Assembly (NCBI GenBank): GCA_014913405.1
Contig: GCA_014913405.1_3931.1
DNA from: a phage
DNA length: 64,000 bases
Direction: 5' to 3' (one strand)
In this document: piece after piece, positions 17,880-19,593 of the stretch
Layout of the letters: every line of letters starts with the position of its first letter
Position numbering within the stretch: position 1 is the stretch's first letter
Program-made: the position numbers and the translations under genes
The notes under the pieces: generated by a model
What the model was told of the DNA's origin: nothing
What the model saw: the letters and a program-made list of their open reading frames with translations, nothing else
Database searches by the model: none

Positions 17880-18344
17880 TTACTTTGGATATACACTGTC
17901 AAGATAGATGTCAGCTTCCATTCTACGTCTGTTTTTCAGACCGTTTGAAGTGACCTTCTTACCTTTGACTGTAACCTTGTTCCACCACTGCATAGCTTCT
18001 GCACAACCTACCTTATTACCAGCATTGTGGCGCTTGATAAATGTGGAATCCTGCATAGCTGTGATACCGATGTTGTATGTTTCACTTACAAGTGCATCGA
18101 ACTCATTCTGAGTAGTTGGAACCTTGATAGCTTTGTTCACTGCTGCAACAAACTTCTCAACATCCGCGAGAAGATACTGTTCAGCTTGTTCAGCGGTGAT
18201 TTTCATTCCCATCTTAACAGGTTTTCCGTCAATACGGATTGTACCATACCCGATTGTTGGGATTCCGGCAGAGTCTTCGTAAGCCTCTAACTCCAGACCT
18301 TCGAAGAACTTAATAGCTTCTAAACCTTTTCTTGAGAGTTGCAT
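17880..18344 (-). CDS. e: T4-type lysozyme (GH24 endolysin)
   Basis: EGLELEAYEDSAGIPTIGYG catalytic-region motif; about 154 aa. Confidence 0.85.
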   Translation of the reverse strand: MQLSRKGLEAIKFFEGLELEAYEDSAGIPTIGYGTIRIDGKPVKMGMKITAEQAEQYLLADVEKFVAAVNKAIKVPTTQNEFDALVSETYNIGITAMQDSTFIKRHNAGNKVGCAEAMQWWNKVTVKGKKVTSNGLKNRRRMEADIYLDSVYPK

Positions 18345-19225
18345 TATGCCTCCCCTGCTGGGTTAACAGTAACTGTTGCAGCATTAGACGTTACAGAACC
18401 ACCTGCACCAGTAACTACACAGGTGTAGCTTCCTGCATCAGCAGCGGTTGCACCTTCTTTGGTGTAAGTTGCAGTAGTTGCATCGAGGATGTCTTCCTCA
18501 CCTTTCTTCCATTGGTAACCTGTCGCACCTGTTGCCACAACATTCAGCGTTAAGGTCTCACCTTCAGTGATTTCTTGATTGGTTGGCTGTTGAGTGATAA
18601 CTGGTAAAGCTTTCACAGTAACGGTTGCAGGGTTAGAAGTGACAGAACCACCTGCACCTGTTACAACGCAAGTGTATGAACCAGCATCAGAAGGTTCTAC
18701 AGACTGTTTTGTGTAGGTTGCAGATGTGGCGCTAGTGATATCCTCACCATCCTTTTTCCATTGATATCCAGTGGCATTAGTTGCAATAACACTTAGGGTA
18801 AGTGTACCACCTTCATTTACTGTTTGATTGGTTGGTTGCTGAGTGATTGATGGTGGCTTGATAGCGTCCTTCAACTTAGCATTCAACATTGAGAATGGTT
18901 TAACTCTTGCCAGCCATTCACAATAAACTGTATCAACGTCTTTACCATTGATAATTGCATATTGTAAGTCCATGAAGAAGTCAGAAGTTCTCATTTGAGC
19001 ACCAACACTGTAAAGCAACTCATCACTAAATGGAACTTTGTAGTCTGGTTTATAGTCAAACTTCTCAACTTCTGCAATATCAGCTTCAGGCCAATACGAG
19101 CTATAGGTAAGTGGTAAAATAGCCTCTTGATATGTTCTAAAATCATATCTCTTACCAGCCTTTACGTTTGCAATGAAGCCCTTCACAAACTCTTTGAAGT
19201 CTGGGTAAGTCTTTGCTTTAATCAT
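18344..19225 (-). CDS. Protein with N-terminal domain paralogous to the upstream gene plus two tandem Ig-like repeats
   Basis: Repeated QQPTNQ...ATGYQWKK...SYTCVVTGAGGSVTSN...TVTV units. Confidence 0.55.
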   Translation of the reverse strand: MIKAKTYPDFKEFVKGFIANVKAGKRYDFRTYQEAILPLTYSSYWPEADIAEVEKFDYKPDYKVPFSDELLYSVGAQMRTSDFFMDLQYAIINGKDVDTVYCEWLARVKPFSMLNAKLKDAIKPPSITQQPTNQTVNEGGTLTLSVIATNATGYQWKKDGEDITSATSATYTKQSVEPSDAGSYTCVVTGAGGSVTSNPATVTVKALPVITQQPTNQEITEGETLTLNVVATGATGYQWKKGEEDILDATTATYTKEGATAADAGSYTCVVTGAGGSVTSNAATVTVNPAGEA

Positions 19226-19593
19226 TTCTTTTCAGCCTCTAAATGTGCGTTTAGTCTAAAATAACCTTTGTGATTCGGAGATACATCACCAACGACAATA
19301 CCTTTAACCTTATATCCTTTACCAATTACATACTGGATATCCATAAGGAATCTTCCAAGACCAACAATATGGAACATTGGGTATAATAGACTCTCAGAGT
19401 CTGGAATATTGATTTCAGGTTTGTAGGTACGCTGTTCGCTTGTTGGTGTAATATCTTCTTCAGGCCATTTACTGAGTCTCCATGTCAAAGGTGTTGGGAT
19501 AACATCATTAAGGTTGTACCTTTCACCATTTTGCACGGAATTGATATAGGATTGTAGGAAGCAATAAAAGTCTTTTGCACTCTTAGCTTTCAT
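19222..19593 (-). CDS. Paralog of the N-terminal domain of the Ig-repeat protein
   Basis: Shared KxFxxFxxxxIxxVxxGxRY...W(P)E(E/A)DI pattern. Confidence 0.5.
   Translation of the reverse strand: MKAKSAKDFYCFLQSYINSVQNGERYNLNDVIPTPLTWRLSKWPEEDITPTSEQRTYKPEINIPDSESLLYPMFHIVGLGRFLMDIQYVIGKGYKVKGIVVGDVSPNHKGYFRLNAHLEAEKK

Follow-up and report, generated by a model that had tools for sequence, protein, structure and literature searches.

Why would a phage keep, beside its lysozyme gene, two tandem genes for homologous proteins, one of which ends in two immunoglobulin (Ig)-like repeats and the other of which has none? The locus that raises this question lies in a 64,000-nucleotide (nt) stretch of phage DNA (contig GCA_014913405.1_3931.1 of assembly GCA_014913405.1; this whole stretch is called the window below). 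Both open reading frames (ORFs) exist as an earlier note, made from the sequence alone, had claimed: on the minus strand, next to the lysozyme gene, a short gene at 19222..19593 encodes 123 amino acids (aa) and a long gene at 18344..19225 encodes 293 aa. The phage belongs to the genus Felixounavirus. It is 97.8% identical in nucleotide sequence to E. coli O157 typing phage 1 (TP1), 250 Ounavirinae records match the segment holding the locus, and the window contains an array of 26 tRNA genes, a feature typical of Felix O1-like phages. Our explanation has three parts, namely that the long gene encodes the hexamer decoration protein (Hex-Dec) of the capsid, that the short gene encodes a paralog of its capsid-binding domain (CapBD) that is probably not a stable part of the virion, and that recombination changes the number of Ig repeats. 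We give this explanation as a whole a probability of roughly 0.8.

The long gene and the phage head

In a phmmer search of the PDB, the 293-aa protein matched two solved chains, 9ncf_S (E 2.7e-244) and 9c2d_S (E 3.4e-190), collinearly over residues 1-289, and the family phrog_3995 covers residues 1-292 (E 5e-169). Chain S of 9NCF is Hex-Dec of the Felixounavirus Bas63 (PMC12609058), and chain S of 9C2D/9C3A is gp20 of the Mooglevirus Sf14 (PMC11821841). Cryo-electron microscopy (cryo-EM) of both phages showed that the N-terminal ~118-120 aa form a CapBD, described as two-lobed, that sits as a monomer at the hexamer centre. Of the hexamers in the T=9 capsid, only those next to the pentamers (facet-edge, quasi-3-fold) are occupied (n=60), and the Ig domains are flexible and without resolved density in the maps (PMC12609058, PMC11821841).

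The window protein shares the details on which this placement depends. Its CapBD (aa 1-120; 18866..19225, minus strand) aligns residue by residue with the modelled CapBD of 9ncf_S and 9c2d_S and is nearly the same as that of Bas63, with few differing residues in 120. In Sf14 gp20, Arg79 and Arg107 form salt bridges to Asp221 of three capsid subunits (PMC11821841). Both arginines are present in the window Hex-Dec translation, and a six-frame search with a residue check found Asp221 in the window major capsid protein (368 aa; 34237..35343, plus strand). In the window, the Hex-Dec gene is immediately 5´ of the endolysin gene and not within the structural module, and the Bas63 gene lies >10 kb outside its structural module (PMC12609058). 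The Felix O1 ortholog, gp36 (ORF36, 31.6 kDa), was identified in virions by shotgun mass spectrometry, which yielded 14 peptides.

The long protein has every feature of the Hex-Dec/gp20 family that can be tested on sequence, and we conclude that the 293-aa gene encodes the Felixounavirus hexamer decoration protein, Hoc-like in function. The suggestion of the earlier note that the Ig-bearing protein decorates the virion is thus borne out, by the Bas63 and Sf14 cryo-EM homologs and by gp36 in Felix O1 virions. Given this near-identity, Hex-Dec of the window phage would be expected to sit as a monomer at the centres of facet-edge hexamers, with its two I-set Ig domains projecting outward from the head. 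There, by analogy with T4 Hoc, the Ig domains are likely to provide weak adhesion to surfaces, mucus or cells.

This placement disagrees with most databases. The family phrog_3995 and most GenBank/RefSeq records carry the label "tail protein" for the gene, and UniRef applies "Tail protein" even to the short paralog. The matches of the long protein to PHROG major-tail-protein families (phrog_158, 853 and 3575) are confined to the Ig region, beyond residues ~96-120; the label spreads from the Ig module, which many tail proteins share. We rejected a tail protein identity, as the homology is limited to a promiscuous Ig module and structural work places the long protein on the head. The Bas63 authors likewise call the "tail protein" label an annotation error (PMC12609058).

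Much of this is already known. The long gene corresponds to a head decoration protein solved in 2025, and the presence of one to four Ig domains across the genus has been published (PMC12609058), so that the Hex-Dec finding itself adds little beyond another case of a wrong database label. Relative to the searched text of the Bas63 paper and the main text and searched supplement of the Sf14 paper, what is new is the anchor-only paralog and the recombination breakpoints. We regard both as modest additions.

Ig repeats, recombination and the direction of evolution

The Ig part of Hex-Dec consists of two repeats of 83-86 aa (residues ~124-290), corresponding to I-set type domains at aa 125-207 (18605..18853, minus strand) and aa 208-290 (18356..18604, minus strand). 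Pfam Ig_3 (2.3e-23), Ig_2 (3.7e-19) and I-set (1.8e-17) match two stretches each, the first of which spans residues 124-204 for Ig_3/I-set. The search with hidden Markov models that the earlier note proposed as a check therefore agrees with its description of two tandem Ig-like repeats, and the motif it quoted, (N/G)ATGYQWKK...SYTCVVTGAGGSVTSN, occurs in both. The repeats are 72% identical in protein and have diverged in DNA (proportion of synonymous differences, pS, 0.63); because of this divergence, Tandem Repeats Finder reported no DNA-level array in the Hex-Dec gene.

Alleles with different numbers of repeats show where the array has changed. Ig2 of the window is the last Ig domain of three- and four-Ig alleles (99% to Ig3 of phage wV8 and near-identical to Ig4 of Bas63), and the last ~25 residues of Ig1 of the window match the end of the middle Ig domain of wV8, not the end of wV8 Ig1. 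The length difference between the two-Ig alleles and the three-Ig allele of wV8 is exactly one repeat period (249-252 bp). A multiple DNA alignment of two- and three-Ig alleles forced one shared gap and hid the breakpoints, so we instead scanned the register of two-Ig alleles against the wV8 gene, taking as a switch the change to the +252 or +249 register. The alleles compared were those of the window (18344-18853), wV8 (L001:3545-4678), Felix O1 (L004:5156-6040) and REP9 (L006:2498-3379). In the window and in TP1, the switch (+252 nt) falls at gene nt ~540-550, in the motif SYTCVV (residue ~181-184). In Felix O1, it falls at gene nt ~700, in GYQWKK of the second repeat (residue ~234), and in REP9 at gene nt ~450, in GYQWKK of the first repeat (residue ~151). 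Because these are three different switch points relative to wV8, the sequences indicate at least three independent in-register recombinations, each of which removed (or added) exactly one Ig period. In-register recombination at varied points would provide a mechanism for the published variation from one to four Ig domains.

Beyond the genus, the family is narrow. A profile built from short paralogs and the CapBD matched only 12 of 1.84 billion representative proteins. All of the distant matches traced to source (P0055/P0056, P0057 and P0059) belong to Ounavirinae-like phages or contigs; for P0058, P0060 and P0061, metagenome assemblies are the only known source. The CapBD anchor domain is not covered by any Pfam family. 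What follows the anchor differs between lineages: Big_2 in Erwinia phages (P0057 and P0058), one I-set domain in the P0060 lineage, and a Lys/Ser-rich tail with no Ig domain in P0059 (locus L011). The comparison with related phages that the earlier note called for thus gives a varied extension (one to four I-set domains, Big_2, or a Lys-rich tail without Ig), and because the C-terminal parts differ in this way, the anchor has evidently been recombined with different display modules. At the P0057 and P0059 loci (L008:4001-4615, an Erwinia-type phage, and L011:5001-5462), a single CapBD gene occupies the same slot, between a 196-aa-like gene and the lysozyme gene, and no short paralog is present at these two outgroup loci.

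These comparisons bear on the earlier note's reading of the pair as domain accretion. Part of that reading stands, in that an anchor has been joined to varied modules across relatives; the part that fails is the short gene as the form that preceded accretion. On a simple accretion model, the short gene would be the ancestral Ig-less form and the long gene a duplicate that later gained Ig repeats. The Ig module is exactly what separates the two, the short protein stops where the CapBD meets the linker, and the CapBD has gained different modules by lineage (I-set, Big_2, Lys-rich tail). However, the outgroups, Erwinia phages and others, have one gene with a C-terminal module and no short copy, and the short proteins have lost Arg79 and are unreported in virions, as described below. 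In a neighbour-joining tree, in which long branches have an effect and which leaves the direction undecided, the short paralogs form a separate, fast-evolving clade. They are 33-35% identical to the enteric CapBD, about the same distance from it as the CapBD of Erwinia phages (35%). It would be no less parsimonious if, in the ancestor of the enteric Ounavirinae, the CapBD part had been duplicated in tandem, or if a duplicate had arisen and then lost its Ig part, and we consider simple accretion unlikely. These sequence comparisons suggest that the short gene arose later, by tandem duplication in the enteric branch, and does not represent the ancestral state.

The anchor-only paralog

The homology of the 123-aa protein to the N-terminus of the long protein, also proposed in the earlier note, is well supported. 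BLASTP gives 37% identity over 101 aa (residues 2-100; E 6e-16), and the two proteins match each other's PHROG families reciprocally (phrog_3995, 5.9e-15; phrog_4463, 3.5e-17). The 123-aa protein falls in its own family, phrog_4463, with an E of 4.8e-79, and its orthologs include Felix O1 ORF37, wV8 gp42 and VpaE1 ORF40c. In the PDB, phmmer matched it only to 9ncf_S (1.4e-11) and 9c2d_S (5.3e-11), and in Pfam, no family was found at E <= 1 and no Ig domain. A first AlphaFold2 (AF2) model, from an 11-sequence alignment, had a pLDDT of 60.8, which made a Foldseek search meaningless; the final model used a 19-sequence alignment that included distant CapBDs and reached a pLDDT of 75.5. With this model, Foldseek returned 9c2d_S (TM 0.71) and 9ncf_S (TM 0.69) over 114-117 columns, and no other match in the PDB below E 0.5. 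Because both CapBD chains were matched over this length, the short protein is predicted to have the whole two-lobed CapBD fold. It is an old tandem paralog of the CapBD alone, with the same conserved core and, in the model, the same fold. The contact residues are not kept in the same way. In all short paralogs, P0055 with its 44% identity among them, an invariant Gly (in the motif VGLG) stands in place of Arg79; at position 107 they carry N, Q, H or, occasionally, R.

The gene has been retained widely. A full-length short paralog is present in 233 of 253 phage records, and the order 196-aa gene, short gene, Hex-Dec gene, lysozyme gene is also kept in Mooglevirus. The same four-gene order recurs in an 87-kb metagenomic phage, in which the short protein is 44% and the CapBD 59% identical to that of the window; an IMG/VR scan with the divergent short paralog of this kind, P0055, gave no match. 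Against Mooglevirus, the short paralog has a ratio of nonsynonymous to synonymous divergence (dN/dS) of 0.14, with dS near-saturated, and a dN of 0.177, 2.6 times that of the CapBD (0.068). On these comparisons, purifying selection acts on the short gene, which evolves faster than its Hex-Dec partner.

Retention is not complete. Three phages, REP9, Z31 and vB_CECAV_041, have only a remnant of the short gene, with the start codon lost, ~220 bp deleted and the frame disrupted (L006:2306-2497 in REP9, L005:2306-2497 in Z31 and L013:1013-1197 in vB_CECAV_041, corresponding to 19226-19640 of the window). The deletion is the same in REP9 and Z31; the gap in vB_CECAV_041 is of similar size. Hex-Dec varies within this group as well: REP9 has two Ig domains and vB_CECAV_041 (210 aa) has one, and in Z31 the gene is split into two coding sequences. 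Because the short gene has decayed in these viable isolates, we read it as dispensable; most likely it is dispensable for plaque formation, yet useful enough for near-universal retention.

The same facts could describe a functionless duplicate heading for loss, which would account both for the decayed remnants in the three phages and for the failure to detect the protein in virions. That idea is strongly disfavoured, and we think it very improbable, given the intact gene in the great majority of records, the low dN/dS at near-saturated dS, the long invariant blocks within the short-paralog family (for example LLYPMFHIVGLG-FLMDIQYV) and the retention with synteny in the 44%-identity lineage. 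Late, regulated expression also speaks against it. In microarray data for Felix O1, Hex-Dec (ORF36) and the short gene (ORF37) peaked at 60 min, together with the portal, tail and fibre genes, and the lysin gene peaked at 25 min.

Published work on virions has not revealed the short protein. The virion shotgun proteome of Felix O1 lacks ORF37, even though it includes proteins of 9.7-13.7 kDa. For VpaE1, 22 virion proteins were reported; the text of that study names none from the locus beyond the Felix O1 set, and ORF40c, still "hypothetical" in the ORF table, is absent from the virion proteins discussed in the text. In Bas63, there was no density on hexamers without Hex-Dec, and the sole virion product left unmodelled is a baseplate protein (PMC12609058). 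In Sf14, gp20 is on quasi-3-fold hexamers only (PMC11821841). The upstream CapBD-only paralog goes unmentioned in the searched text of the Bas63 paper (PMC12609058), as does the short paralog in the main text and searched supplement of the Sf14 paper (PMC11821841), and an mBio paper on Felixounavirus in mice contains nothing on the locus. The virion association to which the earlier note tied its reading therefore holds for the long protein and, as far as these portions of the published proteomes and cryo-EM reports go, not for the short one.

Most likely, we suggest, the short protein has an accessory role and is either non-structural or weakly bound, rather than being a stable virion component, because it is unreported in virions and in density, has lost Arg79 and is encoded by a gene that decayed in a viable sublineage. 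An alternative is that it is a second decoration protein, of hexamers or pentamers, which caps the 20 facet-centre hexamers and has been overlooked because it is smeared by averaging and lost in caesium chloride (CsCl). A monomer on the icosahedral 3-fold axis would indeed be smeared by symmetry averaging. The predicted CapBD fold is complete, expression is late alongside Hex-Dec and the structural genes, Hex-Dec leaves exactly one hexamer class bare, and one related phage has a single Ig-less CapBD protein (P0059 in L011). Nevertheless, this alternative seems improbable in view of the bare hexamers of Bas63, the restriction of gp20 to quasi-3-fold hexamers in Sf14, the Felix O1 proteome with its smaller detected proteins, the lack of a report in the VpaE1 text, the loss of Arg79 in every short paralog and the decay of the gene in a viable clade.

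For an accessory protein of this kind, the mechanism we prefer, tentatively and at somewhat less than even odds, is that it would engage hexamer centres, of the procapsid or of free capsomers, weakly or transiently during assembly. While bound, it could act as a placeholder or competitor, influencing when and where Hex-Dec binds. A broader proposal holds that, in Ounavirinae, the CapBD paralog without Ig domains interacts with capsids in a role so far unrecognised: it would either decorate the 20 facet-centre hexamers (or pentamers) or, by occupying hexamer centres for a time during assembly, set the selectivity of Hex-Dec for 60 of 80 hexamers. This is possible but doubtful.

Several points weigh against our reading of the short protein and of the Ig domains. 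The evidence that the short protein is not in virions is absence of detection, and a weakly bound or low-copy protein could be missed: the proteomes date from 2010 and 2015, with CsCl-purified particles where stated (VpaE1 and the Felix O1 gel analysis), and the cryo-EM maps are icosahedrally averaged. The loss of Arg79 speaks weakly against capsid binding; some distant single-copy homologs (P0058, P0059 and P0061) are also without Arg79, and two short paralogs carry Arg at position 107. Net charge and pI of the short paralogs are not conserved (+2 to +4 in Felixounavirus, -4 in Mooglevirus), and because the charge varies, there is no electrostatic support for binding to the acidic hexamer centre. 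The placeholder or competitor mechanism is purely inferential, and the adhesive role of the Ig domains is drawn from the T4 Hoc analogy.

A conserved, late, selected anchor-only copy nonetheless raises the question of why Hex-Dec occupies only 60 of 80 hexamers, and whether decoration is regulated during assembly. To our knowledge, no other Hoc-like decoration system has a dedicated anchor-only partner; if the paralog does interact with capsids, this would be the first known. Hex-Dec-type anchors could also serve for phage display on Felix O1-like phages used in therapy, and in that setting a native protein competing for the same site would matter.

The gene block, its neighbours and related systems

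In the sense of transcription, the order on the minus strand is short paralog, Hex-Dec gene and endolysin gene, between two hairpins. The endolysin (17880..18344, minus strand) is a phage lysozyme of glycoside hydrolase family 24 (GH24; Pfam Phage_lysozyme, E 4.5e-41; phrog_7, endolysin). The stop codon of the short paralog and the start codon of Hex-Dec overlap as ATGA, and the Hex-Dec stop codon and endolysin start codon have one base in common. A GC-rich hairpin read from the sequence, GGGGC-TTAT-GCCCC (19618..19631, minus strand), immediately follows the stop codon that ends the upstream 196-aa gene, with the start codon of the short paralog coming 24 nt after it; the hairpin is kept in REP9 and Z31, and was not picked up by a pattern scan for terminators. 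The scan and the sequence place a terminator-like hairpin followed by a T-run 3´ of the endolysin gene (17853..17870, minus strand). Both hairpin sites are annotated as terminators in phage wV8, the upstream one as a Rho-independent terminator. Given the tight overlaps and the flanking terminator-like hairpins, we consider the three genes to form one compact block.

The overlap invites a further explanation of the pair, namely that a programmed frameshift at ATGA fuses the two ORFs into a CapBD-CapBD-Ig-Ig protein. The 4-nt overlap lies in an A-rich context (GAAAAGAAATGA), and Ig domains appended by frameshifting have reportedly been described in other phages by Fraser et al. in 2006. We rejected this possibility as extremely unlikely, since the frame of the short gene contains no canonical slippery heptamer of the form X XXY YYZ, Hex-Dec has its own GAGG ribosome-binding site 10 nt 5´ of its ATG, and the solved chains begin at Hex-Dec Met1. 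REP9, moreover, keeps an intact Hex-Dec gene without the short gene.

How the block is transcribed may involve a sequence just 5´ of the short-paralog start codon, before its ribosome-binding site. A scan for sigma-70 promoters gave 4 sites against 9.1 expected by chance, none of them upstream of the short paralog. The sequence AACTATTTATAAGG is found at 19601-19614 (minus strand), and it has one close relative, AAGTATTTATAAGC, at 20727-20740 (minus strand), in the divergent intergenic region that heads the leftward gene block. The AACTATTTATAAGG motif is not enriched in the window (19 matches with <=3 mismatches against 12.4 expected), and a promoter role for motifs of this type is putative and unproven.

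Two neighbours deserve mention. The upstream 196-aa gene (19641-20231, minus strand; phrog_4034, function class unassigned) is syntenic with the CapBD gene and the lysozyme gene in all lineages examined, distant ones included, where its counterparts encode 205 aa (L008), 195 aa (L009) and 185 aa (L011). Its product has no confident Pfam match, and PADLOC gave no defence-related match for it or for the short and long proteins. On the plus strand, a gene at 21304-22719 encodes a protein of 471 aa that contains the domains DUF2828 and DUF7788; RefSeq calls it "RNA-binding protein", and one record notes it as vWA-like. The gene stands directly upstream of the 26 tRNA genes (22884-28095, plus strand), a neighbourhood kept in the distant phage at L011.

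Among known decoration systems, T4 Hoc resembles Hex-Dec in being a monomer at the hexamer centre, with a small capsid-binding domain and a string of Ig domains; it is dispensable, and has been proposed to act in adhesion or environment sensing. We know of no CapBD-only paralog in T4. The PHROG families for Hoc-like head decoration (phrog_2973, 3.8e-28; phrog_4069) match the Ig region of the long protein, residues ~121-291, and since these matches begin at residue ~121, there is no sequence similarity to Hoc outside the Ig part. The CapBD is C-terminal in Hoc, whereas in Hex-Dec it is N-terminal, and the CapBD fold is described as larger and topologically distinct, with pseudo-C2 symmetry (PMC12609058). 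Membership of the long protein in the Hoc family was rejected for these reasons, its anchor being N-terminal, unrelated in sequence and topologically distinct. T5 pb10, cited as an analogue in the Sf14 paper (PMC11821841), likewise combines a hexamer-centre anchor with Ig, although with one Ig-like domain, and the whole-library profile search (12 proteins, the traced ones Ounavirinae-like) detected no sequence relation between its anchor and the CapBD.

The closest relatives are the two phages with solved heads. Sf14 gp20, from a Shigella phage (Commun Biol 2025, PMC11821841), is homologous to the window Hex-Dec over its full length, and the 118-aa N-terminal CapBD, R79 and R107, and D221 of the major capsid protein are all common to both. 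Sf14 differs in genus and in having three Ig domains against two. Closer still is Bas63 (Escherichia phage JohannRWettstein; Sci Adv 2025, PMC12609058), which shares with the window phage the genus, the gene, its endolysin-adjacent position and I-set Ig repeats of the same kind. Bas63 has four Ig domains, of which Ig1 and Ig4 correspond to Ig1 and Ig2 of the window. Set beside these proteins, the short protein is an anchor-only variant of the Hex-Dec/gp20 family, which shares the fold and is without both Arg79 and the Ig domains.

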